Shown one piece after another: positions 1 through 52,664 of a stretch of DNA of 64,000 nucleotides. A program made the translations under genes and the position numbers. The first letter of the stretch is position 1. Each line of letters starts with the position of its first letter. Origin of the DNA: an uncultured Candidatus Saccharibacteria bacterium (GTDB lineage Bacteria > Patescibacteriota > Minisyncoccia > Phycocordibacterales > Zambryskibacteraceae); the NCBI GenBank assembly GCA_964509605.1, contig CAZDXF010000001.1:79619-143618 (forward strand), in the 5' to 3' direction. The notes under the pieces were generated by a model, which saw nothing but the letters and a program-made list of their open reading frames with translations, did not search any database and was not told the DNA's origin.

Positions 1-1016
1 AACTAGAAGAACTTTCAAAAGAGTTTATTGATAGGGCAATTGAAATTACAAAAAGAGCCGTAGAAGCTTCTCCTTTTAAAGTGTCTGAAATTGAAGAAGT
101 TATTCTGGTGGGAGGACAAACCAGAATGCCAGCTATTGTTGAAGCAGTAAAAAACTTTTTTGGAAAAGAGCCCAACAAATCTATAAACCCAGATGAAGTG
201 GTTGCTTTGGGGGCCGCTGTTCAAGGTGGAATAATAGCGGGTGATGTAAAAGACATTCTTCTTTTGGATGTCATTCCTCTTTCTTTGGGGATTGAAACCT
301 TGGGAGGTGTTGCAACAAAACTGATTGAAAAAAACACCACAATTCCGGCATCAAAATCACAAATTTTTTCTACTGCAGCAGATAATCAAACTTCTGTTCA
401 AATACATATAGTGCAGGGAGAGCGCCCAATGGCAAGCGACAACAAAAGCTTGGGTCAATTTATACTTGATGGCATTCCTCCGGCTCCAAGAGGAATGCCC
501 CAAGTTGAAGTCGTCTTTGATATAGACGCTAACGGAATTCTAAATGTAAAAGCTAAAGACAAAACTAGTGGTAAAGAACAATCTATAAAAATAGAAGCTA
601 GCTCTGGTCTTTCTCAAGAAGAAATAGAAAGAATGAAAAAAGAAGCTGAACTTCACGGAGAAGAAGATAAGAAAAAAGCAGAACTAGTAGAAGCTAAAAA
701 TTTGGCAGAACAGCTTATATATACAGCTGAAAAATCTTTAAAAGACGCTCAAGATAAAGTGCCAGCAGATTTAAAACAAAATATAGAAAGTAAGATTGAA
801 ACTCTTAAAAAAGAAAAAGAGGGAAATGATCTCCAACAAATTAAAAAGACGACGGAAGAATTATCTTCAGAAGTCTCAAAAATTGGACAATTTATGAATC
901 AAGCCCAATCTCAGGGCGAACAAAAATCGGAAGGATCTTCTTCTCAAGAAAATGTTAAGGACGCAGAGTTTGAAGAGAAAAAACCAAACGAAGAACCTCC
1001 AAAAGAAAATCAGTAA
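1..1016 (+). CDS. dnaK: Chaperone DnaK (Hsp70), C-terminal ~338 codons; 5' end lies outside the window
   Basis: The reading frame is open from position 3. The translation [45 protein letters not shown] matches the conserved Hsp70 substrate-binding domain. A charged, EEKK-rich C-terminal tail follows, and dnaJ lies immediately downstream. Confidence 0.95.
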
Positions 1017-1045: not shown

Positions 1046-2107
1046 ATGTCTAAAGATTATTACAAAATATTAGGTGTAGAGAAAAATGCTTCAAAAGATG
1101 AGATAAAAAAAGCCTTCAGAAAACTGGCTCACCAGTACCATCCTGATAAAAAAGAAGGAAACGCAGACAGATTTAAGGAAGTAAACGAAGCTTATAGCGT
1201 TCTTTCTGACGAAACAAAAAGAGCTCAGTACGACGCTTATGGCCAGACTTTTTCAGGAGCAACTGGAAGTGGTTTTGAAGGATTTCAAGGTTTTGATTTT
1301 TCTAATTTCAAAGATGGGGGAGTAGAGTTTGATTTGGGAGACATATTTGGCGATATATTTGGCGGAGGGGCGAGAGCTCGAAATAAAAGAGGGCGAGACA
1401 TCTCTATGGATATCGAACTCTCTTTTGAAGAATCTGTCTTCGGGGTGGAGAGAGCGATTCTTTTGAACAAAGTTTCTAAATGTCTTTCTTGTGAGGGAAG
1501 CGGGGCAAAAAAAGGTTCCAAAATGGAAACTTGTTCAACCTGCAATGGAAAAGGACAAATAAGAGAAGTACGCAGATCAATAATCGGATCATTTGCATCA
1601 GTTAGAACTTGCGAAATTTGTCATGGAAAAGGAGAAATACCGAAAGATAAGTGTCCTGATTGCAAGGGCTCTGGAGTCTTGAAAAGAGAGCAAGAGATAA
1701 AAGTAACAATACCTCCCGGAGTAGAAGATGGAGAAATGGTCCGTCTTTCTGGTATGGGAGAAGCTTTATCTCACGGAGTTGCCGGTGATCTGTATATAAA
1801 AATTCATGTTAGAGATCACTCTACTTTTAAAAAAGAAGGAAACAATTTAACAATGACGCTTCCTGTTAAACTTTCTGAGGCGCTTTTGGGCGGAGAACAA
1901 ACAATAAAAACACTGGATGGGGAAATTACAATCAAAATTCCAGAAGGCGTCGGGTTTGGCGAAATTTTGCGTGTAAAAGGCAAGGGTGTGCCACATGATA
2001 AAGGAAAGCGCGGAGATTTGCTGGTTAAAATTCAAATAGAGCTTCCTAAAAAACTTTCAAAAGAAATGAAAGAGGTTGTAGAAAAATTAAAAAAAGGTGG
2101 GATATAA
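1046..2107 (+). CDS. dnaJ: Chaperone DnaJ
   Basis: N-terminal J domain (DYYKILGV...HQYHPDKK), a G/F-rich region, four CxxCxGxG zinc-finger repeats and the C-terminal domains. It is adjacent to dnaK. Confidence 0.95.
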   Translation: MSKDYYKILGVEKNASKDEIKKAFRKLAHQYHPDKKEGNADRFKEVNEAYSVLSDETKRAQYDAYGQTFSGATGSGFEGFQGFDFSNFKDGGVEFDLGDIFGDIFGGGARARNKRGRDISMDIELSFEESVFGVERAILLNKVSKCLSCEGSGAKKGSKMETCSTCNGKGQIREVRRSIIGSFASVRTCEICHGKGEIPKDKCPDCKGSGVLKREQEIKVTIPPGVEDGEMVRLSGMGEALSHGVAGDLYIKIHVRDHSTFKKEGNNLTMTLPVKLSEALLGGEQTIKTLDGEITIKIPEGVGFGEILRVKGKGVPHDKGKRGDLLVKIQIELPKKLSKEMKEVVEKLKKGGI

Positions 2108-2303
2108 ATCAAAAAAATGAAAACGGAAAATTTTGGAGAACATTTTATGATATAATCACAACAAATGTTTTTGAAAAATAAATTTAAAATTTTTGTTTTC
2201 CTAACTATATTGATAATAATTTCAATTTGTATAACCTTCTATAAAAGCGTAGTTAAGAAAGACTTTGAAATTTTCTTGCCGCCCAAAGGAGAATATCCAG
2301 AAA

Positions 2304-2786
2304 ATGTATAAAGTTTATCCAAAAAAAACAAAAAGAACTGGAATAGGAATATTTGCTAAAAAGAATCTAAAAAGAGGGGAAGTTATTTTTATAGTGAAAG
2401 GAAACCTGGTTCATTTTATAGTAAGAAATAAGAAAGGGGCTCTATATGGAGATCGTTGGCTCAGCATTAAAAAAAACACTTGGATTAATCCAAGAGAAGA
2501 CAGCCCTTGGTATTTTATAAATCATTCCTGTAAACCCAATGCTGGAATAAAAGGCAAAATATCAATAGTGGCATTAAAAAATATAAAAAAGGGAGAAGAA
2601 ATTACAATAGACTACTCAATAACAGAAGCGGAAAAACTCTGGAGCATGAAATGTAACTGTGGTTATAAAAATTGCAGAAAAGAAATAAAATCGATTCAGT
2701 TTCTCCCTGAAAAAATATATAGAAAATATTTACCTTATATACCAAAGTATATACAAAAGGTAAAAAAACAAATTCAAAAAAAATAA
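2304..2786 (+). CDS. SET-domain protein (putative protein-lysine N-methyltransferase)
   Basis: Carries an NHSCKPN motif, ITIDY, and a post-SET-like Cys cluster (CNCGYKNC). The ORF track starts at a TTG at 2265. The ATG at 2304, preceded by GGAGA, is the more plausible start. Confidence 0.7.
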   Translation: MYKVYPKKTKRTGIGIFAKKNLKRGEVIFIVKGNLVHFIVRNKKGALYGDRWLSIKKNTWINPREDSPWYFINHSCKPNAGIKGKISIVALKNIKKGEEITIDYSITEAEKLWSMKCNCGYKNCRKEIKSIQFLPEKIYRKYLPYIPKYIQKVKKQIQKK

Positions 2787-2787
2787 A

Positions 2788-3336
2788 ATGGAATCTCTTT
2801 TCAACATAATAATTAAAAAATTATTTAAAAAAGAGACTGCAAAAAAGGGACTAAATATAAGTAGCTATCTACTTCTAGATTATTTTTTTGATTTTGTCTT
2901 ATATTACATAATGATAAGACAGTTTGGTCCCGTAGTAGGTGGTGGTTCTGTTATGTTGCTCGGTCTTATAATTGATTTGGTAATATTGCATCTATATGAC
3001 AAAAGCGGAAAAGACCATTTTGGCTTGGAAGATTTAAAAAATCTTAGAGATTATGACGGAAACAATCGTTGGAGAATCTGGATTTCAAAAACTTTAAAAA
3101 AGGGGGATCTCGTAGCTATGGTTATTCTGGCTTTTTATTCCAATCCCTGCCTGACGACCATATACATGAGACCTAAAGATGAGAAGCGCAGAAAAATGAA
3201 CTGGAAGGATAGTCTGATTTTCTCTTTCAGTGTTTTTATTGAAATATCTTGGATAATAATAGTGTATGGATTTGTATTATTAGAAGGTTTGATAAGAAGA
3301 CTATTTGATTATATAAATATGATATTATTCTCTTAA
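2788..3336 (+). CDS. Hypothetical multi-pass membrane protein
   Basis: 182-aa ORF with several hydrophobic segments and AT-rich native codon usage. No motif recognised. Confidence 0.45.
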   Translation: MESLFNIIIKKLFKKETAKKGLNISSYLLLDYFFDFVLYYIMIRQFGPVVGGGSVMLLGLIIDLVILHLYDKSGKDHFGLEDLKNLRDYDGNNRWRIWISKTLKKGDLVAMVILAFYSNPCLTTIYMRPKDEKRRKMNWKDSLIFSFSVFIEISWIIIVYGFVLLEGLIRRLFDYINMILFS

Positions 3337-25119: not shown

Positions 25120-25953
25120 ATGAGAAGGCTCCAGAATTGGTTCAGGAAAATAGGTTCGAAAAAAGTTCTGATTGCCGTGATTGGCGTCGTTTTCGGTACC
25201 TTCCTTGGTTCCTTTTTTACTTTCATGTTTGGTCCAGTCATGGGTCTCGTGCCGGGTCTCGTTATCGGTATCATCGGAGGTCTCTTCCTAGGTCTCTTCT
25301 GGGGTTTTGGATCCACCCTCGGCGTTCTTTTAGCTGTTGCTGTGTGGTTATATCCCGGTCCAATGATTTACACTTGGTTGATGGTAACTTTGTCGCTCGT
25401 CATTAAGAGCTGGTTCTTGGTAAGGGGAGAAATGAGGTGGAAAAAGATAATCTGTACAGAGAATGCTCAACACTACCCTTCCCTTTCCGACCTGAGGCAA
25501 AGCTCTCTTCGGCTGATTGAAGTAGAGGGATTCTCCGTTTTTAAGAAAAAGGCGGAGGAGGTGTACCTAGATCTACCGAAGATCGCCCGAGAGCTCTTAG
25601 ATCTGCATTCCGCCTACAACAAAAGCACTTCCCAAATCAAGACAGAGATGTACAGAGGTGAAATACTTAAGACTGTCGAGAGACTTCTGGAGATGAACGA
25701 GATATTCTCCCAAGAACTCGTCCGTCTTGAGCGTGAACAACCGAGTAGAGAAGCTGACGAATCAAAGATTGTAGTTTCCAAGCTCGCCACAATAGGCGGT
25801 CTTGAAGACACTCTTGATGAACTTCGTCGCCTCAGAGATGGAATGGTTGAAGCGGAAGATGAAACACCTCAAGGCACAGCTCTTGAAAGAGAGATTGATG
25901 GCTTGAAGCAAGCTTCCCCATTGCCGTTTCCTCGCGTGAAAGGCAACTACTAG
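25120..25953 (+). CDS. Hypothetical membrane protein (glycine-zipper-rich 3-TM N-terminus plus cytoplasmic coiled-coil domain); GC-rich cassette gene
   Basis: GGGGAGG Shine-Dalgarno sequence. GxxxG-rich TM helices followed by a ~170-aa charged helical domain. About 50% GC. Own promoter and terminator. Confidence 0.6.
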   Translation: MRRLQNWFRKIGSKKVLIAVIGVVFGTFLGSFFTFMFGPVMGLVPGLVIGIIGGLFLGLFWGFGSTLGVLLAVAVWLYPGPMIYTWLMVTLSLVIKSWFLVRGEMRWKKIICTENAQHYPSLSDLRQSSLRLIEVEGFSVFKKKAEEVYLDLPKIARELLDLHSAYNKSTSQIKTEMYRGEILKTVERLLEMNEIFSQELVRLEREQPSREADESKIVVSKLATIGGLEDTLDELRRLRDGMVEAEDETPQGTALEREIDGLKQASPLPFPRVKGNY

Positions 25954-25954
25954 A

Positions 25955-25999
25955 ACCCCCACGATAACCCCCGCAGGTTGTCGTGGGGGTTATCTTTTT
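25955..25999 (+). terminator. Rho-independent terminator
   Basis: CCCCCACGA...UCGUGGGGG stem followed by UUAUCUUUUUU. Confidence 0.6.
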
Positions 26000-26039
26000 T
26001 ATTTATTAAAATTAATTACAAAGTTTTCCATTTCGTTCA

Positions 26040-26065
26040 ATATATCGAACGAAATGGACTTCTAA
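26040..26065. promoter_or_regulatory. Second copy of the 26-bp palindrome (one mismatch: ATTTCGTTCAATATATCGAACGAAAT)
   Basis: Same sequence as 25006..25031 except G->A at one position. It lies ~70 bp upstream of the next GC-rich ORF. Confidence 0.5.
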
Positions 26066-26133
26066 ATTTATTTCTTTGTGATAGTCTTCTCGAAAGAAAT
26101 TTGCTCTAAACCAAATCCCCCCATGGAGGCTAT

Positions 26134-26382
26134 ATGCCGATGAAGAAGAAGCCCGGCAAGAAGCTCACGCGAAAGCCGAGAAAACCCAAGAATCCACCAA
26201 AAGGTGATTTTGGCAAGGGGTTCGATGACGGTCTCGCCGGGAAATCTCCCATGCTAACAAGTGATAAGTATATCGAGGGATATCGTCTCGGACGAGCAAG
26301 GAGACGGGCAGATATGATTTACCACAACCACGGAGTTCTTAACCCTCGATATCCAGAATACTTGGATGAGGAATTTAAGTAA
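26134..26382 (+). CDS. Hypothetical small, highly basic protein (82 aa); GC-rich cassette gene
   Basis: GGAGG Shine-Dalgarno sequence 5 nt upstream. N-terminus KKKPGKKLTRKPRKPKNPPKG. Followed by a perfect 15-bp-stem terminator. Confidence 0.5.
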   Translation: MPMKKKPGKKLTRKPRKPKNPPKGDFGKGFDDGLAGKSPMLTSDKYIEGYRLGRARRRADMIYHNHGVLNPRYPEYLDEEFK

Positions 26383-26394
26383 CCAAAACCACAC

Positions 26395-26437
26395 CCCGCA
26401 CGGTCGTAGCGCTACGACCGTGCGGTTTCTGTTTTTT
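26395..26437 (+). terminator. Rho-independent terminator (15-bp perfect palindromic stem + U-tract)
   Basis: CCGCACGGUCGUAGC/GCUACGACCGUGCGG followed by UUUCUGUUUUUU. Confidence 0.65.
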
Positions 26438-26450
26438 CTCTTCTGTCTAC

Positions 26451-26500
26451 TTATTACTGTTTACTAATTACTATCTATTAACTCCTGCCTACTATTTTAG
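26451..26500. repeat. TACTGTTTACTAATTACTATCTA...CCTACTATTTTAG motif, copy a of a 3-member repeat family
   Basis: Related copies lie at 34467..34535 and 38600..38637. Each lies just after a GC-rich terminator and overlaps or abuts the stop codon of a convergent minus-strand gene. Confidence 0.5.
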
Positions 26501-26974
26501 TCCCTTACAATTAGAAGCTGGTACATAACCAGCTTTTCTCGCCTCTTCTATTGAAGCGAAAGTTATTTTATTTTCTTCTGCAATTCTTTTTGCGCCCGAA
26601 CACCATGGATAATGATACTTATCACTATTTTTGGAACCAACAACAATTCCATTTTCCTGACTTTCAATTTCATTTTTTATAGTTTTTTGAATTTCTGAAG
26701 AATTGAGCTCGTCTAAAGATAGAACTGCGGAAGCCGAACTATTATCAAAAAACAGCACTTCCGGAGCCGTCTTCTGATCTTTATAAAAAGACAATCTTCC
26801 CAAACCAAAAGAGCCCAGAGCGACCAAAATAATCAAAACTCCTAAAAATAAGTGTTTTTTGACATCATCCCCCCTATCTTTTGGCTCCAAATCAAAAACC
26901 TCCTCTTCATAATTAGCCTTGTTTTGAGGGTCATCTAGGGGGTTGATTTTATTTGACTCTTCTTTTATACTCAT
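26492..26974 (-). CDS. Membrane-anchored protein with C-terminal Ada-N-terminal-like (sunset-like) metal-binding domain
   Basis: One TM helix and a C-terminus KYHYPWCSGAKRI...FASIEEARKAGYVPASNCKG, which resembles the Ada zinc-binding pattern (x..CRPSC...F.S..EA..AGFRPCKRC). Confidence 0.55.
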   Translation of the reverse strand: MSIKEESNKINPLDDPQNKANYEEEVFDLEPKDRGDDVKKHLFLGVLIILVALGSFGLGRLSFYKDQKTAPEVLFFDNSSASAVLSLDELNSSEIQKTIKNEIESQENGIVVGSKNSDKYHYPWCSGAKRIAEENKITFASIEEARKAGYVPASNCKGLK

Positions 26975-26976
26975 CC

Positions 26977-27110
26977 CGTTAGAAGCAGGTCGCGGTCAAG
27001 CGATCTGAGGATTGAAAATAGGTTGTTAATTATCTAATATTTATACTTCTTAATGGTCTGTTTCCTGTTATAACCACGACTGTGGCTTCTAACGGGACTC
27101 ATATCCTGTA
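26977..27110 (+). promoter_or_regulatory. Structured leader upstream of rpmA, closed by a 12-bp long-range inverted repeat
   Basis: CCCGTTAGAAGC (26977-26988) pairs with GCTTCTAACGGG (27099-27110), enclosing ~110 nt directly upstream of the L27 gene. Confidence 0.35.
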
Positions 27111-27153
27111 TTAATCAGCTTATAGGCAAAAACCTAAAGCATCAAGTAAAGCA

Positions 27154-27426
27154 ATGGCATCGAAAAAAGCAGCTGGATCAACAAAAAACGGAAGAGATTC
27201 CAATCCGAAATATCTCGGAATCAAAGTAAGCCCAGGAGCACTAGCTTCTGTTGGTTCTATTTTGGTACGACAAAGAGGAACCGATGTACTCCCTGGTAAA
27301 AATGTTGGTATGGGAAGAGACCACACCCTATTTGCTCTCAAGAATGGAAAGGTGGAAATGAGTCACAAAAGAAAGACTCACTTTGACGGCAAAATAATCA
27401 GAAAGAAAATAATAAGCGTAAACTAG
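27154..27426 (+). CDS. rpmA: 50S ribosomal protein L27
   Basis: [24 protein letters not shown]...VRQRGT...[15 protein letters not shown] is a canonical L27. Confidence 0.9.
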
Positions 27427-27429
27427 AAA

Positions 27430-27460
27430 AACCCTCCAATAAATTGGAGGGTTTTTTGAA
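27430..27460 (+). terminator. Rho-independent terminator
   Basis: AAAAACCCTCCAATAAATTGGAGGGTTTTTTG. Confidence 0.65.
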
Positions 27461-27540
27461 TTTGACTTTTTTGAATGAGATTGTTATAAAAGCTCGAGCT
27501 GTTCTGCAGGAAACCTTCTGCCCCCAAAAGGAGCTGGACT

Positions 27541-27918
27541 ATGCATCTAGCAACCGCAGGTGAAGCGAAGGCACAGTTTATGACAATCCTCATGAGTGAA
27601 GCGGTATCAACAGATGCTATCCTGTCTCTCATCGAGGATATCGAAGCCGGACAAGTGGTGGGTCGAGATTGCGAGAGATGTCCAATCGCTCTTCTCGCCT
27701 ACTACTCTGAGAAGACCTACGAGTCTTTTCGAAGGAGGTTCGGATTTTCTCCCAACTGGAGAGAGAATCCGTTTGAGGTTTTCGTACAGGGAATCTTCTC
27801 CGGACACACTCCGGCGAAAAACTCTGATCTGGCCCATGTCCTCGTGTGGTGCGACGAAGCGCTTATCATGAGGGCCGAGCGAAGTGTGCTGGAAACCTCA
27901 GAGGTCCTCGCTTCCTGA
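27541..27918 (+). CDS. Hypothetical protein (125 aa); GC-rich cassette gene
   Basis: TTGACTTTTTT-N16-TTATAA promoter at ~27466-27498. AAAGGAG Shine-Dalgarno sequence. About 55% GC. A GC hairpin terminator follows. No motif recognised. Confidence 0.5.
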   Translation: MHLATAGEAKAQFMTILMSEAVSTDAILSLIEDIEAGQVVGRDCERCPIALLAYYSEKTYESFRRRFGFSPNWRENPFEVFVQGIFSGHTPAKNSDLAHVLVWCDEALIMRAERSVLETSEVLAS

Positions 27919-34935: not shown

Positions 34936-35267
34936 AACGGGCTCTATTCTATATAAAATCAGGAAAATGGCAAGGCCCTCGAATCGCTCGAGGGCCCGTG
35001 CACCACCCCTTGCTGGGAGTGACCTAAAACTTAAGATTTCACCAACAAGGAGAGACAGTTGGTCACCCCCTCTCAAAGGTTGAGGTTTTGACCTCTAGCC
35101 GATGAGAGAGAGCTTACGGACGACTGTAGCCCATGGTGCATCTCCAAAGCTGGGGTAGGAGGAGAACTGCGGAAGGGTGTTGCGGTTGTCTAAACCTTTT
35201 TCGGAATAAGACCCCCTTTGGTTCAGTCTTTCTTTATTATAACCCCGACTTCACTTAAAACTGGGGA
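34936..35267 (-). promoter_or_regulatory. ~330-nt GC-rich, highly structured 5' leader of rplU (possible ribosomal-protein autoregulatory leader or embedded ncRNA)
   Basis: TATAAT at ~35225. Multiple nested helices, e.g. GGGGGUGACC/GGUCACUCCC, GAGGUCAAAACCUC, and GGCCCUCGAGCGAUUCGAGGGCC. No plausible ORF other than the artefactual rplU N-extension. Confidence 0.4.
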
Positions 35268-36934: not shown

Positions 36935-37423
36935 GTGCTGACACTTTCCGCATGTTCCTTTGACATCCAAGTGAGCTCGATGAGTTTGAGTAGGGTCATA
37001 ACCGCTGGAGATTACGATGTCCTGCACCCTCACATCGGGAAAATAGACCTTTCTGTCTGTGACGTGCCCCTCAGTACCAAGGACAGTGGTGTCCGCGTCA
37101 TAAGCTTTGCAACGGTGCGATCCTTAAACGGCAAAGCCGAAGAAGCATACAGGTGTTTCAAAAAGTTCAAAAAGAAACGATTGGCATTGCTTCGCGAATT
37201 TCTTCACATCGGAGTTTGCAAGCCGGAAATTCAAAGGTTCTATCAGATCTTTTGTCTTACGGCGATGTTTCCAGTAAGAAGGTTGAATGGCAAGTGGACC
37301 TCAGTCGTCCTGTTTCTTGATACGGACAAACTCGGAAGAAGGTGTATCGGTCTGCACGATATAGAGAACCCTCTGCCAATGAGTGCTGTGGTTGCCTATG
37401 TGCAATACCCAGAAGTAAGCTGA
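36935..37423 (+). CDS. Hypothetical protein (162 aa); GC-rich cassette gene (GTG start)
   Basis: GGAGG Shine-Dalgarno sequence 4 nt before the GTG. About 50% GC. Own TTGATT...TATACT promoter and a terminator at 37445-37490. No motif recognised. Confidence 0.5.
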   Translation: MLTLSACSFDIQVSSMSLSRVITAGDYDVLHPHIGKIDLSVCDVPLSTKDSGVRVISFATVRSLNGKAEEAYRCFKKFKKKRLALLREFLHIGVCKPEIQRFYQIFCLTAMFPVRRLNGKWTSVVLFLDTDKLGRRCIGLHDIENPLPMSAVVAYVQYPEVS

Positions 37424-37444
37424 CCATCACCAGCGTATCCAGAC

Positions 37445-37490
37445 AGCCCTGGCCCGTTTTAAACGGACCAGGGCTTGCTCTTTTTCATTA
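37445..37490 (+). terminator. Rho-independent terminator
   Basis: CAGCCCUGGCCCGUUUUAAACGGACCAGGGCUUGCUCUUUUUC. Confidence 0.6.
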
Positions 37491-37579
37491 TCCACAGTTT
37501 CTTGACTTTTTCTTTAAAATATGATAGTATTAAGATCGGAAAGCTCCACTACACTCTAACCGAGGGAAGGAGGGGGGGT

Positions 37580-37849
37580 ATGATTCCCCAGGTTTCGTTC
37601 CAAGACCTCGTAAAAGAGGTCAAGGAGCGCCACATTTCGACCGGTGCTCCTCTCACCCTGCTGGTGGGAGAGGCACTCGCAAGATGTGGTACTGCTGATC
37701 CAGAAGCGAAGTGCAAGCTTCTGTCGGCGGTCGTAGGCGAAGTCCCCTCTTGGAAGCAGGTTCGGAGGGGACTCGTGGAAGAACGGCGGGGCCGTAGTGG
37801 CGTGGTATATCGCGCCGAAAACGGCTTCCAGCCAGAGCGGGACGACTAG
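37580..37849 (+). CDS. Hypothetical protein (~90 aa); GC-rich cassette gene
   Basis: Canonical TTGACTTTTT-N17-TAGTAT promoter at ~37501-37535. GGAGGGGGGG Shine-Dalgarno sequence. A hairpin terminator overlaps the stop (GGGACGACUAGUACAGUCGUCCC + U-tract). Coordinates are ±1 nt. Confidence 0.45.
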   Translation: MIPQVSFQDLVKEVKERHISTGAPLTLLVGEALARCGTADPEAKCKLLSAVVGEVPSWKQVRRGLVEERRGRSGVVYRAENGFQPERDD

Positions 37850-37971
37850 TACAGTCGTCCCGTATTTTTTATTTTAAAAATTAAAAAGCGCGCCGTTGAC
37901 TAACTAAATATTTTATACTATTGTTTGCGCTAGCAGTTCCTAAACAAACAAAAACTACTTTGGAGGTATAT

Positions 37972-38544
37972 ATGTCCACCGAAGGACAGACCAACGACTC
38001 AGCCAACGAGCTGATTCGAAGTTTTCCGAAGGACAGAAGGCTCTTTTTGGGCGACACGGTGGATGCAAAAGAGTCTCGCAGACTCATTTCAAGCATCGTA
38101 TCGCTCTCTGCAACTGAAGACCCAATTCTTCTTACCATCAATTCTGGTGGAGGAGGTTTTTGGGAAGGACACTATCTCTATGATGCAATCAGGGTGTGTC
38201 CAGTATCTGTCACAGGTCTTGTGATTGGTACGGCCTCGTCTGTGGCTTGCGTTATCCTGCAGGCCTGCAATCGAAGATTGATCACCAAACACTCCAGAAT
38301 TCTGGTTCACCCTCCGTCTTTCAGAGGAGATGTGGAGTTTGACATTCACTCTGACAACGAGAGGACTCTCCGAGAAATGCGACACTGGTACAAGGAATTC
38401 AGGCGCAATGTGAGGAGAACTGAAGAACTCCTTCTCAATCATTGCAACCTGAACAGGAACCAGCTTCGCAGTCTTATGGAAAAGGAACTGTATCTCGAGT
38501 CTGACGAAGCGCTAAAAATGGGCTTCGTGGATGAAGTGGTTTAG
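37972..38544 (+). CDS. ClpP-family serine peptidase (S14), stand-alone; GC-rich cassette gene
   Basis: RLFLGDTVD...LTINSGGG...YDAI...GTASSVACVIL (Ser)...SRILVHPP (His)...ESDEALKMGFVDEV (Asp) aligns to the ClpP catalytic triad. GGAGG Shine-Dalgarno sequence, TTGACT promoter, and a GC hairpin terminator. About 50% GC. Confidence 0.8.
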   Translation: MSTEGQTNDSANELIRSFPKDRRLFLGDTVDAKESRRLISSIVSLSATEDPILLTINSGGGGFWEGHYLYDAIRVCPVSVTGLVIGTASSVACVILQACNRRLITKHSRILVHPPSFRGDVEFDIHSDNERTLREMRHWYKEFRRNVRRTEELLLNHCNLNRNQLRSLMEKELYLESDEALKMGFVDEVV

Positions 38545-38550
38545 GTTTGG

Positions 38551-38590
38551 AAAGTGCCCGCGACGCCTTGGCGTCGCGGGCCTTTCTCTT
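38551..38590 (+). terminator. Rho-independent terminator
   Basis: AAAGTGCCCGCGACGCCTTGGCGTCGCGGGCCTTTCTCTTTTTC. Confidence 0.65.
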
Positions 38591-38599
38591 TTTCTTATT

Positions 38600-38637
38600 T
38601 TCTGTCCACTGTCTACTAACTATTGTCTACTATCTTA
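38600..38637. repeat. TCTGTCCACTGTCTACTAACTATTGTCTACTATCTTAA motif, copy c
   Basis: Matches copies a and b. It overlaps the stop codon of the convergent Ogt-like gene. Confidence 0.5.
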
Positions 38638-38881
38638 AATACCCCTCTTCAATAAGCTTTTTTCTCTTTGCAAAATTTCCGCCATTGTACCCTCCAATTT
38701 TTCCATCGCTTTTGACAACTCTATGACACGGAATTTTTGAATCGTGATTTTTATTTAAAATATTCCCTACTGCTCTGTATGCTTTTGGTTTCCCCGAAAG
38801 CTGTGCAACCTCTTTGTAAGTCAAAACTTTTCCGCGAGGGATCTTCTTTACCACTGAATATACTTTTTCTTGAAATGTCAT
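38630..38881 (-). CDS. Methylated-DNA-protein-cysteine methyltransferase family protein (DNA-binding/active-site domain only, 83 aa)
   Basis: TYKEVA...AVGNILNKNHDSKIPCHRVV carries the PCHRV active-site motif. It lacks the N-terminal domain. Confidence 0.8.
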   Translation of the reverse strand: MTFQEKVYSVVKKIPRGKVLTYKEVAQLSGKPKAYRAVGNILNKNHDSKIPCHRVVKSDGKIGGYNGGNFAKRKKLIEEGYLR

Positions 38882-38946
38882 AAATTAATAATAACAAACC
38901 CCCGCCGAGACAAAATCTCGGCGGGGGGCCAGTAATTCGTTCGGGC

Positions 38947-39267
38947 TCAAGCCCTCTGCGAAGCCGAGGCTCCGCTTCGCTTCCTCTGCCTTCTCACCCT
39001 CGGATGAAAACGCCACTTGCGAATGGCCCCACCCCCACGCTGGACAAAAACTCCGAAGCGCAGAGACCTCTCCCCTTCAAGCATCTGAACAATCTTGTGG
39101 GGCATCTCCCAGAGATTTCTCCTCTCCCCGTCACCGCAGAGCTTGTCCATATGGAGATTCTCTTCGCAGACGATCTGGGCGATGACTTGGTTGGTGTGAC
39201 TGTCCATCGGCTCCACGAACCAGCGATACTCCCGCCTCTTCTTCTCCAACAAATATCTCGTCGGCAT
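38947..39267 (-). CDS. Hypothetical protein (106 aa); GC-rich cassette gene
   Basis: About 58% GC. GGAGGAG lies immediately upstream of the ATG. A strong terminator (CCCCCGCCGAGA/UCUCGGCGGGGG + UUUGUU) lies downstream at ~38895-38935. Overlapping alternative-frame ORFs make the frame call tentative. Confidence 0.4.
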   Translation of the reverse strand: MPTRYLLEKKRREYRWFVEPMDSHTNQVIAQIVCEENLHMDKLCGDGERRNLWEMPHKIVQMLEGERSLRFGVFVQRGGGAIRKWRFHPRVRRQRKRSGASASQRA

Positions 39268-39329
39268 TTCTCCTCCAAGGTGGAAGTGTGGTGTTCAACT
39301 CTATTTACAATACGATTTTTATATAAAAA

Positions 39330-39370
39330 ATCAAATAAATAAAAACACTGCGCAATTTGAATTGCGCAGT
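39330..39370. terminator. Bidirectional terminator (12-bp perfect stem flanked by A5/T5), plus a second hairpin at 39386-39410
   Basis: AAAAACACTGCGCAATTTGAATTGCGCAGTGTTTTT, followed by CGTGTCGACCTGGCAGGTCGACACG. Confidence 0.55.
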
Positions 39371-40175: not shown

Positions 40176-40195
40176 CACGACCCTACCGGGAATCG
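40176..40195. repeat. Direct repeat of the 3' end of tRNA-Glu (19/20 identical to 40356..40375), att-like
   Basis: CACGACCCTACCGGGAATCG versus CATGACCCTACCGGGAATCG. The upstream copy has no complete tRNA body. Confidence 0.5.
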
Positions 40196-40357
40196 GTCAC
40201 AAGTCCAATTCATTCTGAATTGGCTCGCGACCCCGACTCGGCAACCCCGCCCTCTAATTAGAGGGCGGGGGCTTCGCGCCTCTGTCTTTCGATTCCCAGT
40301 ATGGAACCCTGTGGGTACTAAAAATCCGATGCTCTCGCATCGGATCTTAAGTACCCA

Positions 40358-40429
40358 TGACCCTACCGGGAATCGAACCCGGCTTTGGAGCTTGAGAAGC
40401 TCCCGTCCTAACCGATAGACGATAGGGCC
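40358..40429 (-). tRNA. tRNA-Glu (anticodon CUC)
   Basis: Manual cloverleaf. Acceptor GGCCCUA/UAGGGUC, D-arm GUCU/GGAC with a GG loop, anticodon stem GGAGC/GCUCC with loop UUCUCAA, T-arm CCGGG-UUCGAUU-CCCGG, discriminator A. No encoded CCA. Confidence 0.85.
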
Positions 40430-45505: not shown

Positions 45506-47284
45506 TCAAACGCCAACGGTGAGACGACGCTTCTTTGTCGCCACCTTTTTGGACTGAGACTTGCCATCGGAAGACTTCTGATCCTTAACGTTGCTGTCAA
45601 GAATCTTCTTGCCACGACGTCCTCCAAACTGACGCCCGGCGATGGTATCGCCGTGAATCAGCATGAAAACGTACGGGGCATAGGTCTCCTCCAACACAAG
45701 TTCTGCGAACGGCGCCCAATCGCTCGGGGCGGCCCGGAGAGCCAGCGCCTGTAGCATGACATACTCCTGGAAACGCATCAGAGTTCTGTCACTGTGCTCT
45801 TCGCACTGTTGCCACAGAGGGTGCAGAACATTAATCCTCAGGGTGCCGGTTTCCTCTTCCAATACCCAGAGTCGGTCGCTTCCCTGAATAGCATCATGCA
45901 CCAACTGAAGTCCGAGACTGTTGCTACGGACAATCGTTCGGCGTGTGCCTTTTGGACCAACGACCGTCATGGGACGGTGTTCTGGACGTTCCTTCTCGGG
46001 TTCAAAGTTCTCATTACCCTCACCCTCACCATTTGAGGGCTTCTCGGGACGAAGGTTATTGACGGCCAGAGACGTTTCCGGAGAAGGACTTCCCTTCTTT
46101 TCGAAATGCCCAGGTCCAATCGAACCCTTCTTGAAAGACTCAATGGCCTTGAGAAGCCCAGCAAACTGCGGCCTCTTCAACATCTCTTCGATGACTTTCA
46201 TCGAACGAATGCCGAGTTGCTGGTAGCGCTCCTCTTGCCGCTGATCATTAGCGTCCTGATAATGCTCGGCGCCGTGTTCAGCGAACCACTTTTCGAGGAT
46301 CACACAGAAACCAACCAGCGACTCGTCGGCCTCAAACGACCGGCGACTGGCGTGGAGTGTGATTGCACTGTTGAGGACCTCACCCTCGAAAAGACCAGAA
46401 CCCAGAGCAGACACAAGCTCATCCGAGAGCTTACACGCCTCCGGCAAGGACCGATTGAATGTCGAGAAGTTCAGACGAAAATCGTTGTCCTTCTCGCCAA
46501 CCAAGACCTTACCATTGCGCTTACCCTTCTTATCCTTCTGGGCCAAGAAGAGTCGGAAGTGGGTCTGCCCCGACTCCCTGTCTCGATAATCGACCTCTTC
46601 CAGCTTCCTGCCAGTGAAGTCCTTGGCCCTGATTTCACAACTCTGCCGTTCACCGTCTTCATCGACGACAGTCAACTCAATCACCGACTGGTTCTTACGC
46701 ATGGTGGAAGCGAAACGCTCCAACACACCATCACGAAGGGAATCCATAGTCACGATGTTGATCTGTCGATCGGTCGTGAACCCTTCGATTCTCACCTCAG
46801 TACGCCAGCGAACAGAGGACACTCCACGAACCACTCGCGTCTCTGCCCGAGAAAACTGCAGATCGAGGCGCTCCCTCATGGGGATGCCTTCGATCTTCTG
46901 CTGTTTCAGGAGATCGTCGGTAACGAAGCTCCACTCCAAGAAACCCTTGGGGTTCCGCTTGGTAGTGGAGGTAAAGATGAATCGAGCACACTTGCCCAAT
47001 GGCGAGATAAGCCCAAGACCAAAGCGTCCCAATTTATCCTTCTTCTTGATGGAAGAGGAAACGCTGGTCAGGGCCTTTTCAAACTCTTGCTGACTCACTC
47101 CATCTCCATCATCGCGGACAGCGATCTGACGCTGCTTCTGATTCACAACGATGGTGATAACCTGAGCTCCCTTGTCGAGACAGTTTTGCACGCTCTCGAG
47201 CAAGACATCCAGGATCCTAGGGTAGTACCCCGCAAGTTTGAGCAGGGCCGCTCCCTCATGAAAACTAAAAGGGCTCTGTTTCAC
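45506..47284 (-). CDS. GHKL-superfamily ATPase (MORC/MutL/Hsp90-like Bergerat fold) with unknown C-terminal domains; third gene of the GC-rich operon
   Basis: N-box ESVQNCLDKGA (ExxxNxxD), G1 RDDGDGV, and G2 LGRFGLGLIS, followed by ~450 aa without recognised motifs, including an E/G-rich linker. GTG start with an AAAGGAGA Shine-Dalgarno sequence. About 55% GC. Confidence 0.7.
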   Translation of the reverse strand: MKQSPFSFHEGAALLKLAGYYPRILDVLLESVQNCLDKGAQVITIVVNQKQRQIAVRDDGDGVSQQEFEKALTSVSSSIKKKDKLGRFGLGLISPLGKCARFIFTSTTKRNPKGFLEWSFVTDDLLKQQKIEGIPMRERLDLQFSRAETRVVRGVSSVRWRTEVRIEGFTTDRQINIVTMDSLRDGVLERFASTMRKNQSVIELTVVDEDGERQSCEIRAKDFTGRKLEEVDYRDRESGQTHFRLFLAQKDKKGKRNGKVLVGEKDNDFRLNFSTFNRSLPEACKLSDELVSALGSGLFEGEVLNSAITLHASRRSFEADESLVGFCVILEKWFAEHGAEHYQDANDQRQEERYQQLGIRSMKVIEEMLKRPQFAGLLKAIESFKKGSIGPGHFEKKGSPSPETSLAVNNLRPEKPSNGEGEGNENFEPEKERPEHRPMTVVGPKGTRRTIVRSNSLGLQLVHDAIQGSDRLWVLEEETGTLRINVLHPLWQQCEEHSDRTLMRFQEYVMLQALALRAAPSDWAPFAELVLEETYAPYVFMLIHGDTIAGRQFGGRRGKKILDSNVKDQKSSDGKSQSKKVATKKRRLTVGV

Positions 47285-47301
47285 TGCAGTCTCCTTTTTG
47301 C

Positions 47302-48072
47302 TTATTGCTGGTGGTTGTTGACAAGCTCGCGAGCCTTCTCACTACAGAGTCGACTCGACGCTTTCGACAGGCGAAACATACCATCAGATCCAGTCCGCTT
47401 ACGCAGCTCGTTACGTTGTTCTCGACTGGTTTCAGAAACCGCCCTTTCAAGAAGAGGGGTGATAGCCAAAACCAGATGAGCCAAGACCTCAATTGAAATT
47501 GGGTCTTGTTTCTCAAGATCGAGTGCGCCTTTTGCTACTTGAGTAACTGGTGTACTGGGGGGGTCCGTCTCAACATAAATCTTGATTGACGGAACCCGCA
47601 TCAAAACGCTAAGCAGGGTGGCCTTTTTCTTTGCCAACTCTTCCCCTGCTTCCCCATAGAGCCTTTCTACCTTCTGCGTTCTGGCAGTGTTGGTATCAGA
47701 ATCCGCACGAGCCAAGCGAAATACGCTGTGCGTATCACCGAAACCAAGATGTTCACGGGCTTCTTCTGGCGTCAAAATATCGTACGCCAAAAGCTCGGCT
47801 AGCTTGTGACTGACATGATCAGTACCATGCACATATTCCACAAGCTCGTACCCAACCGCTTCGAGAAATAGACGAAGCTTGATCAGTGGCTCTCCCAACG
47901 GAACATTTCGACCATAAATCCAGGCCGATACCGTGTCAGGATGAACGCGCACAAACTCAACCAGTGGCAATTTCGCCTTGCCAGCTTCCTTGCTACCTTT
48001 CGGTGGTAGAGAATGTTCGGCAAAATGTGCCAAACACTCAATTGTGGTGCCTCGAAACAGTTTACTCATCAC
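47302..48072 (-). CDS. Hypothetical helical protein (256 aa); second gene of the GC-rich operon
   Basis: AAGGAG Shine-Dalgarno sequence 6 nt upstream. About 55% GC. It lies 17 bp upstream of the GHKL ATPase gene. Confidence 0.6.
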   Translation of the reverse strand: MMSKLFRGTTIECLAHFAEHSLPPKGSKEAGKAKLPLVEFVRVHPDTVSAWIYGRNVPLGEPLIKLRLFLEAVGYELVEYVHGTDHVSHKLAELLAYDILTPEEAREHLGFGDTHSVFRLARADSDTNTARTQKVERLYGEAGEELAKKKATLLSVLMRVPSIKIYVETDPPSTPVTQVAKGALDLEKQDPISIEVLAHLVLAITPLLERAVSETSREQRNELRKRTGSDGMFRLSKASSRLCSEKARELVNNHQQ

Positions 48073-48086
48073 TTTCTCCTTGTCGC

Positions 48087-48365
48087 TTATTGCTGGTTTA
48101 TTTCTGCGAGTGAAAAAGGTCTGGCCTCAAATGCGCGCCAACCCTTGGCAAACTTCTGGAGATTACCCAGAAGAACTACTTGACCCTTTCGGACATCTGC
48201 CGAACCTTTCCAATATTCGATCGAAAAGGTTACAGCAGTGCCCTTAGGTAAAACACCGTCGATTTTTGTGAAGGTTACTGCGTAGCGTCCATTACTGGAC
48301 GAACGAATTTCTCCTACAGTTGCCTCCAGAAGAGAATCTCTCTCTTCTCTCTTAACATTTGACAC
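48087..48365 (-). CDS. Hypothetical small protein (~92 aa, GTG start); first gene of the GC-rich operon
   Basis: An internal GAAAGGAGCAAAAAAGUG (Shine-Dalgarno + GTG) lies inside the track ORF 48087..48452. That ORF has no Met and starts with TTG directly after the lysS terminator. A TTGACA-N17-TATTGT promoter lies upstream at 48406-48434. The C-terminal tail and the following junction resemble those of gene 2. Confidence 0.4.
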   Translation of the reverse strand: MSNVKREERDSLLEATVGEIRSSSNGRYAVTFTKIDGVLPKGTAVTFSIEYWKGSADVRKGQVVLLGNLQKFAKGWRAFEARPFSLAEINQQ

Positions 48366-48405
48366 TTTTTTGCTCCTTTCAAAGAACTGTTTAAAAACTG
48401 GCAAA

Positions 48406-48434
48406 ACAATATCAGTAAAATTAATTTTGTCAAG
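48406..48434 (-). promoter_or_regulatory. Candidate sigma70-type promoter of the GC-rich operon (TTGACA-N17-TATTGT)
   Basis: Read on the minus strand. It is located between the lysS terminator hairpin (48462-48498) and the internal SD-GTG start. Confidence 0.4.
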
Positions 48435-48522
48435 ATTAGGGACTTTTATCAAAGAAGATCAGAAAACAAAAAAATACTGAGTAAATATCCTCAGTATTTT
48501 TTTGTTTTTTATTCACTTTTCT

Positions 48523-50056: not shown

Positions 50057-50524
50057 TTACTGAATGCTGATTATCTTATAAGTCATTGTACCAGAGGGGG
50101 TCTTGAAAGAAAATGTCTCTCCTTTCTTCTTTCCAATCACAGCTGAACCAAAAGGAGATTTTGCAGAAATCTTTCCGCTACTAGAGTCGGCTTCTTCAGA
50201 GCCAACCATTGTAAAGGTCTTCTTATCTTTTTCCCCATCTTTCTGCACCGTAATAACAGAACCGACAGAAACAATGTTGGTGCTGTGTGAAGAAACAATA
50301 GTTGCAGACTTTAAAATCATCTCCAGCTTTCTGATTCTATCTTCAATATTTGCCTGCATATCGCGAGCTTCGTGATATTCGGCATTTTCAGAAAGATCGC
50401 CAAGAGCTTTGGCATACTCCAAATTTTCAGCCACTTCTTTGCGCTTTACAGTCTTTAGTTCCGTGAGCTCGTTTTTGAACTCATCGTACTTTTCCTGTGT
50501 TAAATATTCGTGTTCGTCTGCCAT
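50057..50524 (-). CDS. greA: Transcription elongation factor GreA
   Basis: Coiled-coil N-domain with the acidic tip (DLSENAEYH) and an FKBP-like C-domain. The start is taken at MADEHEY rather than the upstream in-frame extension. Confidence 0.9.
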   Translation of the reverse strand: MADEHEYLTQEKYDEFKNELTELKTVKRKEVAENLEYAKALGDLSENAEYHEARDMQANIEDRIRKLEMILKSATIVSSHSTNIVSVGSVITVQKDGEKDKKTFTMVGSEEADSSSGKISAKSPFGSAVIGKKKGETFSFKTPSGTMTYKIISIQ

Positions 50525-50587
50525 ATTTGTGGGGCTAAATGCTACAGGAAAATACCTAAAAGTCAATCAAAATAAAGCGAATGATAA

Positions 50588-50616
50588 AGACTAGACTAAA
50601 AACCACTTGACTAAAA
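50588..50616 (+). promoter_or_regulatory. Strong sigma70-type promoter TTGACT-N16-TATAAT driving the downstream noncoding locus
   Basis: ACTTGACTAAAATATTATATTTGATATAATAGG. Confidence 0.55.
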
Positions 50617-50621
50617 TATTA

Positions 50622-50945
50622 TATTTGATATAATAGGATGAGATTGAAGTAATGGTCTGCCCGACCTACGGGGTACAGTCGGGAACAAAACAGGCCGAAT
50701 GGTATCGGTGGAGACTTCCCCGCCATTGATCCGGCACAAGCAGAAAGGCTCGGTACGCCCTATCCAAAAGGATAAACAACGGCCGACACCTCCTGCTCGG
50801 AACTCTGGTAAAGCAAGCTCCTGCGATGCCCCGGCGTGTTTTAGCTAATCTTATATGATTGGCCGCGCCGGAACCGAACAAAATGGGCGCCCAGCGTCCT
50901 GAAATAATAAGGTCCCGACGCGCGTGTCGGGACCTGTTTTTTTAT
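50622..50945 (+). ncRNA. Structured ncRNA candidate (~325 nt, GC-rich, promoter-to-terminator, no ORF); class unassigned (long-form SRP RNA, RNase P RNA or tmRNA are candidates)
   Basis: About 58% GC. Nested helices GGUCUG/CAGGCC and CCCGAC/GUCGGG. A UCCGGCACAAGCAGAAAGG segment resembles SRP domain IV (UCCGGAAGGAAGCAGC). The 3' terminator is GGUCCCGACGCGCGUGUCGGGACC + U7. No forward ORF. Confidence 0.5.
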
Positions 50946-50951
50946 AAAAAT

Positions 50952-52664
50952 CTACCTCACATACTCTAGTGTATTTATATACATCCATTCCAAAAGCTGT
51001 CGCATCACAAAAGTCGCCCCAATAGTGTTTGCTCTCGGCCCCCTTTCCATTATTACCGCAAATGAATATTTTGGATTTTCATAAGGAAAAAAGCCAACGA
51101 CCCAAGAGTTTACAAATTCTTTCAAAGCACCGAGCTCTGCTGTTCCCGTCTTTCCCGCCACCGCAATACCAGGCATAGAAAGTCCTGAAGCCGTGCCTTC
51201 CTGAACAGACATTCTCATCCCCTCTCTCGCTATTTTTAAATTCTCCTCTTTGAAAGACAGTTTCTCCGCTTTATTTCTTTTATTAGGTTCAAGTTTTCTA
51301 ATCGTTGGATTCAACAAATATCCGCCGTTGGCAAGAGATGAAATAGCTCTAACAGCCTGAATTGGTGTAACTTGAAATCCATATTGACCAATTGAAGTGT
51401 TGTAAGTATCTCCCACCCTCCAAACATCTTCACCAAAAGTTTCAAGCTTCCACTGCGGGCTAGGGACATTGCCAAACTGCTCAAGACCAATATCAACTCC
51501 AGTAGGTTTTCCAAAACCAAATCGCTCCATATAATCTTTTATTTTTGTAATTCCCAAGCCAGGCTGATCACCATATCCTCCGCCTATTGAAAAAAAATAT
51601 ACATTTGAAGACACAGCAATAGCTCTCCTCATATCAGTCAAACCGTGAGCTTTCCAGTCTCTAAAAATAGTTGTCTGCGATGGGTTGTAAGGATTTGGAA
51701 TGGTTATTGAACCAGTGCTCAAAATTTCTTTGTTTGGAGAAATAATATTTTCTTCAAGTGCGGCAACAGAAAGAAATGGTTTGATTATAGAACCTGGAAT
51801 ATAGAGTCCAGAAATTGCTCTGTTTAAAAAAGGATTGCTTTTGTTATTCAAAAAATTATTAATCTGCTGGGAATCTTTTCCTTGAGTCATTGTGTCGGAG
51901 TCGTATTCGGGAAAACTCGTCATTGCCAAAATTTCTCCAGTGTGAATATCCATCAATATTCCAGCTCCGCCCTGAAAACCATAGTCCGAAGATGTTTTTT
52001 CGATAATTTCATAGAGCTTGTCAGAAACTCTTGCATCTATTGAAAGAGACAAATTTTCTCCATCTTTTGGAAGTCTAAGGGTATTTTCCGACTGAACTTC
52101 ACCAAAGGCATCTGTTTCTGTAATTTTCAAACCATTTCTTCCAGCAAGAATATCTTCGTAGTATATTTCCACACCATCCCTTCCGCTAAATTTATCATCA
52201 TAATAAATTCCAAATTTATCTTTTGAAGGATATTTCAAATAACCAACAATGTGAGAAATACCTGAAAAATCTGCATATTCACGCAGAGAAAAATCACCAT
52301 CCGGATTCAAACCGTTCCAAACCAAATGCTCTCCATTTCTATCGAGAATTAGGCCTCTGTTGGCAAAAATCGTAGTATGTCGCAAGTGATTGTTCTGACT
52401 TCTGGTTTCAAAAGCTTCCCCTTGAACAACTTGCAAAAACCAAAGCTTCCCTACAAAAATAAGACCTATTAGGACAAAACTTGCCCCAAGAAAAAATACC
52501 GCTCTCCTATCAACAGGTTTCTCTATTCTTCCTTCAAACTGATGGACATCAAACTCTGGCAGATTTTTTGAATCAAGAAAAATCTCATCAGGATCTATTT
52601 CCTTATTGCGATATGAACCGCGGTTGAACATTCCGCGTAAAAATTTTTTCCAAAAGTGAATCAT
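50952..52664 (-). CDS. mrdA: Class B penicillin-binding protein PBP2 (elongasome transpeptidase)
   Basis: TM anchor plus transpeptidase motifs (SIIKP, SSN, KTGTA). It lies downstream of mreBCD. Confidence 0.85.
   Translation of the reverse strand: MIHFWKKFLRGMFNRGSYRNKEIDPDEIFLDSKNLPEFDVHQFEGRIEKPVDRRAVFFLGASFVLIGLIFVGKLWFLQVVQGEAFETRSQNNHLRHTTIFANRGLILDRNGEHLVWNGLNPDGDFSLREYADFSGISHIVGYLKYPSKDKFGIYYDDKFSGRDGVEIYYEDILAGRNGLKITETDAFGEVQSENTLRLPKDGENLSLSIDARVSDKLYEIIEKTSSDYGFQGGAGILMDIHTGEILAMTSFPEYDSDTMTQGKDSQQINNFLNNKSNPFLNRAISGLYIPGSIIKPFLSVAALEENIISPNKEILSTGSITIPNPYNPSQTTIFRDWKAHGLTDMRRAIAVSSNVYFFSIGGGYGDQPGLGITKIKDYMERFGFGKPTGVDIGLEQFGNVPSPQWKLETFGEDVWRVGDTYNTSIGQYGFQVTPIQAVRAISSLANGGYLLNPTIRKLEPNKRNKAEKLSFKEENLKIAREGMRMSVQEGTASGLSMPGIAVAGKTGTAELGALKEFVNSWVVGFFPYENPKYSFAVIMERGPRANTIGATFVMRQLLEWMYINTLEYVR

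Follow-up and report, generated by a model that had tools for sequence, protein, structure and literature searches.

The spacer between greA and mrdA in the 64,000-nucleotide (nt) stretch of contig CAZDXF010000001.1 analyzed here (the window, hereafter taken at its full length) very probably harbors a genuine gene for a structured RNA whose family is unassigned. Its product, predicted to span positions 50641-50943 of the + strand, is ~300 nt as transcribed, or ~260-270 nt without the terminator hairpin, and is best read as a structured RNA that acts in trans, is confined to its lineage and belongs to a new family, an interpretation that we hold to be probable rather than secure. The spacer measures 427 nt and the RNA gene lies on the strand opposite to both neighbors, whose assignments bear out the location between greA and mrdA given in a preliminary description of the same DNA. 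The host is a member of the Paceibacteria/Parcubacteria within the candidate phyla radiation (CPR), the nearest GreA and MrdA relatives being metagenome-assembled genomes labelled Parcubacteria, Zambryskibacteria or Paceibacterota.

The preliminary description had claimed a near-consensus TTGACT-N16-TATAAT promoter, a segment of ~58% GC with nested helices, and a strong terminator, all of which are present. The promoter matches 11 of 12 consensus positions with a TG-n ahead of the -10 element, is separated by 6-7 nt from the folded segment downstream, and predicts a transcription start at ~50640-50642. At the equivalent place, the two loci with homologues of the RNA described below, L164 and L166, each carry their own 12/12 match (TTGACA-17-TATAAT), and it is this position and conservation, not the quality of the match, that lends the promoter call its weight. 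The GC content is 0.565-0.58 over 50641-50940 against 0.388 for the whole window, and the segment closes with the terminator listed in Table 1, at the corresponding place of which L164 has a different terminator hairpin.

The predicted fold has a minimum free energy of -120 kcal/mol, with z = -4.7 against dinucleotide shuffles, and consists of four serial hairpins, H1-H4 (Table 1), in which ~70% of the bases are paired and the largest internal loops measure 3-5 nt. The 12-nt apical segment of H1 is identical in the window, L164 and L166 and represents the sole strictly invariant exposed element of the RNA; when its complement was sought in the window as a candidate target, the segment matched only itself. 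The stems of H1 vary, with a C-G → U-A compensation in the inner stem and a U-G → U-A change in the outer one, which is 2 bp longer in L164 and L166. All 39 pairs of H2 are kept in the window and L164, six of them changed on both sides and three by G-U-type substitutions, and where the window has the apical mini-hairpin UAUCC-AAAA-GGAUA, L164 carries another hairpin in its stead, AACAGC-UCAA-GCUGCUGUU. The L164 counterpart of H4 reads ACAAAC-AGGCGC-UUCA-GCGCCU, a G-C → A-U and a G-U → G-C change relative to the window. We also observed an internal direct repeat, GAACAAAA(C/U)(A/G)GGC, at 50683-50695 (the 3' side of H1) and 50876-50888 (leading into H4); L164 carries a related ACAAACAGGC ahead of H4.

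Homologues were sought in 175 greA or mrdA loci in all, drawn from Genome Taxonomy Database genomes, JGI metagenomes and Logan/ENA contigs. GreA-anchored searches provided 160 related loci together with the window's own contig from another assembly (L081), and none of the 160 holds sequence similar to the RNA. Closer relatives retrieved by protein search include L164 (GreA 88%), whose homologue matches the window RNA in site and strand, and L166 (GreA 88%), in which the 5' 88 nt of a homologue are found at the contig end. An nhmmer search of the RNA against the 175 loci recovered only L081, L164 and L166, and a covariance model covering H1-H3 (R1), run on all loci and with filters off on six loci with other RNAs, found no further copy in either the window or the 175 loci.

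Comparison with these relatives, which the preliminary description had pointed to as a check, reveals helices kept by compensatory change between the window and L164. RNAalifold predicts 76 pairs for the two sequences, 13 of them changed on both sides; in a curated structure of 60 pairs over H1, H2 and H3, 99.2% of cells pair and nine pairs are compensatory, a result equalled by two of 500 column shuffles, and no slid control yielded a single compensatory pair. Among 22 stem substitutions between the window and L164, 21 keep pairing (18 as the nine compensatory pairs and three of G-U type) and one breaks a pair. Furthermore, identity between the two sequences is 0.82 in paired and 0.67 in unpaired columns, as compared to 0.57-0.62 at the third codon positions of the genes on either side, whose synonymous sites are nearly saturated at this divergence. 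Paired columns are thus more conserved than unpaired ones, and these in turn more than third codon positions, which indicates that selection acts on the fold.

The three codon phases share the substitutions evenly (19/19/17 by position modulo 3), the indels measure 4, 7 and 1 nt, and we therefore conclude that the region is non-coding. The earlier claim that no forward open reading frame (ORF) exists was nearly right, as + strand ORFs of 49 and 36 amino acids (aa) are present and neither frame survives in L164. The + strand is favored by 5-6 G-U pairs and by a covariance model score of 262.7 bits versus 12 on the - strand, and, judged from its sequence, the element is a structured non-coding RNA encoded on the + strand. 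A T-box or other leader of the greA-lysS unit was considered for the - strand and rejected, as the strand evidence favors + and the terminator would precede the structure instead of greA. That the spacer might instead be a leftover of GC-rich foreign DNA, or else a gene for a small protein, devoid of function at the RNA level would be in keeping with its GC content above the genome average, like that of other inserted blocks of the window, with the orphan ORFs without Pfam match that this variable spot holds elsewhere, and with the existence of the 49-aa ORF on the + strand and a 71-aa ORF on the - strand. We find this explanation barely credible, however, in view of the frames broken by indels and the lack of codon periodicity, the retention of pairing in nearly all stem substitutions, the maintenance of the promoter and terminator in two or three lineages, and a six-frame query of the RNA that returned no homologue among 5.8 billion proteins.

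Table 1. Coordinates of the RNA gene, its parts and its neighbors in the window, and of the predicted RNAs found at the same junction in other loci
Feature	Position	Strand	Description
GreA	50057-50524	-	Pfam PF03449 + PF01272
greA promoter-like site	50539-50566	-	TTGACT-16-TAGCAT; back to back with the RNA promoter
Sigma-70-type promoter	50607-50634	+	-35 TTGACT 50607-50612, 16-nt spacer, TG 50626-50627, -10 TATAAT 50629-50634
5' leader	50641-50653	+	GAGAUUGAAGUAAU; predicted single-stranded; partly conserved in L164/L166 as AAGAUUAAAAACC
Hairpin H1	50654-50696	+	Outer stem GGUCUG/CAGGCC, inner stem CCCGAC/GUCGGG, 12-nt apical segment CUACGGGGUACA
Hairpin H2	50701-50830	+	Long, irregular; 130 nt, ~39 bp in three helical segments; contains the SRP-like segment
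Hairpin H3	50831-50871	+	CCGGCGUG...CGCGCCGG; inner stem GCUAAUC/GAUUGGC; 15 pairs, 2 compensatory
3' module	50872-50899	+	Linker AACCGAACAAAAU, then small GC hairpin H4
Hairpin H4	50885-50899	+	GGGCGC-CCA-GCGUCC
Intrinsic terminator	50910-50943	+	Hairpin 50910-50935, 10-11 bp stem, U7 at 50937-50943, -20.3 kcal/mol
PBP2/MrdA-type transpeptidase	50952-52664	-	Stop codon at 50952-50954 on the + strand
L003 RNA	2456-2871	-	Locus coordinates; 416 nt
L084 RNA	1937-2356	-	Locus coordinates; 421 nt
L097 RNA	1962-2390	-	Locus coordinates; 429 nt
L076 RNA	2491-2920	-	Locus coordinates; 430 nt
L087 RNA	185-850	-	Locus coordinates; 666 nt
L169 RNA	403-793	-	Locus coordinates; 392 nt
L171 RNA	1976-2150	-	Locus coordinates; 176 nt

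The preliminary description had named signal recognition particle (SRP) RNA, RNase P RNA and transfer-messenger RNA (tmRNA) as candidate classes while assigning the RNA to none. The abstention was justified, as no Rfam family fits, and the candidates themselves are left unsupported by Rfam, ARAGORN and the predicted architecture alike. Rfam release 15 was searched in three passes: the whole window at gathering thresholds, a 701-nt segment (50400-51100) at E ≤ 10, and the whole window at E ≤ 5. At gathering thresholds the 64 kb yield tRNA-Glu only, and the permissive passes add only terminator-like noise; SRP RNA (RF00169/RF01854), RNase P RNA (RF00010/RF00011), tmRNA (RF00023) and 6S RNA are absent from the matches even at E ≤ 10 on the 701-nt segment. 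ARAGORN likewise reports tRNA-Glu and no tmRNA in the window. The result corrects an annotation trap, in that none of the names SRP RNA, RNase P RNA and tmRNA should be given to the locus.

An identity as SRP RNA, tmRNA or 6S RNA would be compatible with the size range and, in the case of SRP RNA, with the loose resemblance of UCCGGCACAAGCAG to the helix 8 consensus. The segment UCCGGCACAAGCAGAAAGG, initially likened to SRP domain IV, is nevertheless no helix 8 apex and is made up of ordinary helix strands: its UCCG pairs with CGGA and its AGCAG with CUGCU, and the latter helix is AGAGA/UCUCU in L164, that is, three consecutive compensatory pairs. The AGCAG strand co-varies as a helix and is therefore neither conserved nor located in a loop. 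No GNRA or GGAA hairpin loop exists among the loops of the RNA (the 12-nt segment, AAAA/UCAA, UUAUAU and CCA/UUCA), so that the likeness to SRP RNA is confined to the words UCCGG..AAGCAG..AAGG and a Bacillus-type size, whereas the helix 8 tetraloop and the SRP conserved loops are missing. Both ffh and ffs have been reported absent from Parcubacteria (PMC4508563), and ffh is not among the ORFs of the 64-kb window scanned with Pfam. As for tmRNA, there is no tRNA-like end, no tag ORF or other ORF conserved between the window and L164, and no RF00023 match; 6S RNA (RF00013), for its part, gives no match and would call for a single rod with a central bubble in place of four serial hairpins. Taken together, we assign these three classes a negligible likelihood.

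An extremely diverged RNase P RNA (rnpB) has somewhat more in its favor and is still, in our assessment, very unlikely. The RNase P RNAs of CPR bacteria can fall below Rfam thresholds and lose helices, as in 10 of 35 circular CPR genomes the RF00010 thresholds had to be lowered, with helices missing or extended (PMC8172020); a size of ~265-300 nt would be compatible with a reduced form, and no other RNase P RNA was detected in the 64-kb window. In addition, the RNA contains a weak P4 look-alike, in which GGU-CU-GCCCG (50654-50663) could pair with UGGGCGCC (50884-50891), the latter strand being preceded by ACAAAA (compare ACAGAA of J2/4), and one compensatory change supports this pairing. The published diverged CPR forms are nonetheless still found by RF00010 and keep 'many conserved features' (Lui et al. 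2021, PMC8172020), unlike the present RNA, for which both bacterial models stay silent in the most permissive pass. The predicted start lies 13-14 nt before the would-be P4 and leaves no room for P1-P3, conserved region I (CR-I; GGAAAGUCC) is not found in the window sequence, the candidate counterpart of CR-V (ACAGAA..GGCUUA) is the strand preceded by ACAAAA, the pairing of which competes with H1 and H4, and no other long-range helix co-varies. The look-alike strands are, moreover, used in the local hairpins H1 and H4, each with its own compensatory changes, H4 recurs in other RNAs at the junction, and the gene is missing from the site in one of the closest relatives. The likeness to RNase P RNA thus amounts to its size range, a CPR host in which standard models under-detect, and the P4-J2/4 look-alike, whereas the predicted architecture is a string of local hairpins with no P1-P3, CR-I or long-range core.

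Among the loci searched, the RNA is known from three contigs of a single small Paceibacteria clade (the window, L164 and L166), and an MrdA protein search for further clade members brought back a single 90% cluster with three sequences, the only ones from the clade in the protein collection. An empty site, in which the mrdA stop codon is followed by 50-70 nt and then greA, is seen in L162/L163 (GreA 90%, MrdA 90.5%), L165 (81%) and L167 (79%), and these empty sites, which include that of L162/L163, one of the two nearest relatives amenable to checking, leave the earlier qualification of the RNA as essential unsupported. Protein distances are consistent with the topology ((window, L162), L164), L165, with the three ingroup distances close to one another, and the simplest history on this tree is a gain before the three-way split followed by loss from the site in L162; relocation in L162 may also have occurred. 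No target-site duplications or terminal repeats are evident at the borders of the insert in comparison with the empty sites of L162 and L165, neither blastn against collections of phages and plasmids nor a search of IMG/VR with an exact two-block pattern gave a match, and no CRISPR-like or tandem arrays were found in the window.

The empty sites also bear on a mainly cis-acting role, in which a bidirectional terminator and strong convergent transcription would insulate greA-lysS from mreBCD-mrdA read-through, the RNA itself being incidental. The terminator does score on both strands, with 8 nt between its end on the + strand and the mrdA stop codon, so that it follows the stop in the direction of mrdA; the relatives free of the insert have only the short mrdA-greA spacer and no terminator; and greA retains its own promoter, the -35 element of which (AAAAGTCAA on the + strand) is kept in relatives without the RNA as well. 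A terminator alone would suffice for insulation, however, and this role would account neither for 260 nt of internal helices kept by compensatory change, which point to selection on the RNA fold, nor for a consensus-strength promoter kept in three lineages. We therefore consider a primarily cis-acting function very unlikely, while the trans-acting RNA gene that we favor may incidentally separate the mre-mrdA unit from the greA-lysS unit as a bidirectional terminator or insulator.

The mrdA-greA junction is a variable spot. The two genes lie ≤200 nt apart in 103 of 161 loci, and the remainder carry inserts of three kinds: orphan proteins without Pfam match (for example, 235 aa in L168 and 197 aa in each of L057 and L039), housekeeping-like genes (a murF-like ligase, a kinase), and other predicted promoter-to-terminator non-coding RNAs of 176-666 nt (Table 1). 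The protein-gene inserts occur in either orientation; the RNAs lie on the same strand as the window RNA. Neither nhmmer nor covariance model R1 detects similarity between the window RNA and these other types, and Rfam returns no match for L003 and L076 at gathering thresholds or for L003, L084, L097 and L076 at E ≤ 2. The RNAs of L003, L084, L076, L169 and L171 are mutually unalignable apart from a small GC hairpin just before the terminator, which is present in L003, L084, L169 and L171 and not seen in L076. This penultimate hairpin, often with ACAA(A)C ahead of it, reads GGGCGC..GCGUCC-UG in the window. L164 and L169 share the form AGGCGC..GCGCCU-UG, L171 shows AGGAGU..ACUCCU-UG, in which two pairs are compensatory, and L003 and L084 have CGGCGC..GCGCCG and AGG-U-CGC..GCG-A-CCU, respectively.

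Such recurrence raises the possibility, which we regard as conceivable and on the whole unlikely, that one fast-evolving RNA gene has resided at the mrdA-greA junction since before the Paceibacteria lineages split, with only its 3' module (ACAAAC, a small AGGNGN hairpin, UGNA and the terminator) still recognizable; this would extend, not contradict, the explanation that we prefer. Promoter-to-terminator RNAs occupy the same site and strand in seven other loci, those checked against Rfam belong to no known family, the penultimate hairpin is shared with compensatory variation, and hairpins of the strict type are rare, numbering 11 in 837 kb of loci, three of them at the pre-terminator position of the junction. 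On the other hand, sequence and covariance searches find nothing in common between the RNA types, short GC hairpins before terminators can arise by chance, most loci have no insert, and scans for the 3' module with looser regexes and descriptors lacked the specificity that a test would require. With protein genes found at the same place in other loci, the pattern would be accounted for just as well by independent insertions into a permissive spot. The stronger form of the idea, namely that a single ancient, hyper-variable RNA gene had its body of 176-666 nt remodelled between genera while the promoter, the terminator-proximal hairpin module and the terminator persisted, appears to us more doubtful still.

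Two further observations concern the inserts at this junction. The L097 and L087 RNAs have a common conserved 3' domain comprising the Shine-Dalgarno sequence GGAGGA, an ATG and, just before the terminator, an ORF of 15 codons, MTA(H/K)SLMSSR(F/S)GGPP*, whose Pro-Pro-stop end is reminiscent of stalling peptides. Separately, two short inserts, L010:362-618 and L032:2699-3000, are framed by long inverted repeats and share a conserved block, GGGTC(A/G)TTGACA(G/A)AACCATGCTT.

In the model that we favor for the window, an independent gene equipped with its own promoter and factor-independent terminator would yield a stable RNA of ~300 nt that is not part of an mRNA. This product would fold into four consecutive hairpins, maintained by compensatory substitution since the window and L164 diverged, and would act in trans as a folded RNA. 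A protein-binding or scaffolding role appears more likely than that of a short-seed antisense regulator because most of the RNA is paired, selection falls mainly on the helices and no nearby complementary target was found, and an accessory rather than core function is suggested by the loss of the RNA from the site in the sister lineage. This specific combination, a trans-acting, protein-binding and accessory RNA, is a tentative proposal.

Several points weigh against the favored model as a whole. The covariation rests on two full sequences and one partial one, too few for a formal test such as R-scape, and relatives in which the site is empty may carry the RNA elsewhere in their genomes. Taken by itself, the promoter match does not exceed chance expectation in so AT-rich a window, where three matches of ≥11/12 are observed in 64 kb against 3.1 expected from shuffles. 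Finally, the high GC content could partly reflect a foreign origin, as the window contains other GC-rich inserted blocks, such as 45506-48452.

That block, on the - strand between lysS and mraZ, has a GC content of 0.50-0.53 and comprises three genes: one encodes a 592-aa protein with a GHKL ATPase domain (HATPase_c_3) and a weak PADLOC match to TmtA, and no family match was found for the 256-aa protein (Pfam, PADLOC) or the 121-aa protein (PADLOC only). In L162, L164 and L165, lysS is directly followed by mraZ, and the block is therefore an accessory insertion specific to the window lineage. Elsewhere in the window, GC-rich ORFs without Pfam match (277, 82, 125, 162, 124 and 112 aa) occupy 25120-27918 and 36935-39342, around a ClpP-like gene at 37921-38544, and may represent foreign or prophage-like DNA, or in some cases ORFs mis-called over RNA. 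The stretch 34960-35260, which lies between two - strand genes, is GC-rich (~0.5-0.55) and hairpin-forming with no obvious ORF and no Rfam match, and may be another unannotated RNA. In addition, the 3' end of tRNA-Glu (cgattcccggtagggtc) occurs twice on the - strand, at 40181-40198 and 40358-40375, ~180 nt apart with GC-rich hairpins in between, which looks like an att-type trace of an element integrated into the tRNA gene, or an element remnant.

New orphan bacterial non-coding RNAs turn up regularly, and the 6S/Ms1-type RNAs, which bind RNA polymerase, are stable, structured and trans-acting molecules with fast-evolving sequences. The window RNA would resemble the latter as a stable, structured, trans-acting and fast-evolving RNA that, from its sequence alone, looks abundant, and it adjoins the transcription factor gene greA; its predicted fold, however, is not one rod enclosing a large central bubble, and its connection with greA is one of position only. 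Orphan structured RNAs have also been found as long GC-rich intergenic regions in AT-rich genomes by the GC-IGR and DIMPL approaches (PMC6429828, PMC8632094, PMC11109978). As in those RNAs, for instance the raiA motif, the gene described here is a GC-rich island with its own promoter and terminator, several helices and no ORF or assigned function, but it matches none of those families in Rfam 15 and its distribution is far narrower.

The genomes of CPR bacteria (Patescibacteria) are tiny, often <1 Mb, and, to our knowledge, almost nothing is known of their non-coding RNAs other than those of the rRNA, tRNA and RNase P classes. An RNA of ~300 nt with a selected fold and, to judge from its sequence, good expression probably matters to the cell in so small a genome, although its patchy distribution points to an accessory function. 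Were the RNAs of the mrdA-greA junction to form one family, they would constitute an unusual case of a syntenic yet rapidly remodelled large RNA, and the conserved gene order would provide a handle for collecting examples for covariation and structure work. Should they further represent a single hyper-variable gene, the window RNA would be one allele of a new class of fast-evolving, large structured CPR RNAs, whose turnover would suggest conflict or co-evolution with a partner, be it phage, host or RNA polymerase, rather than housekeeping.

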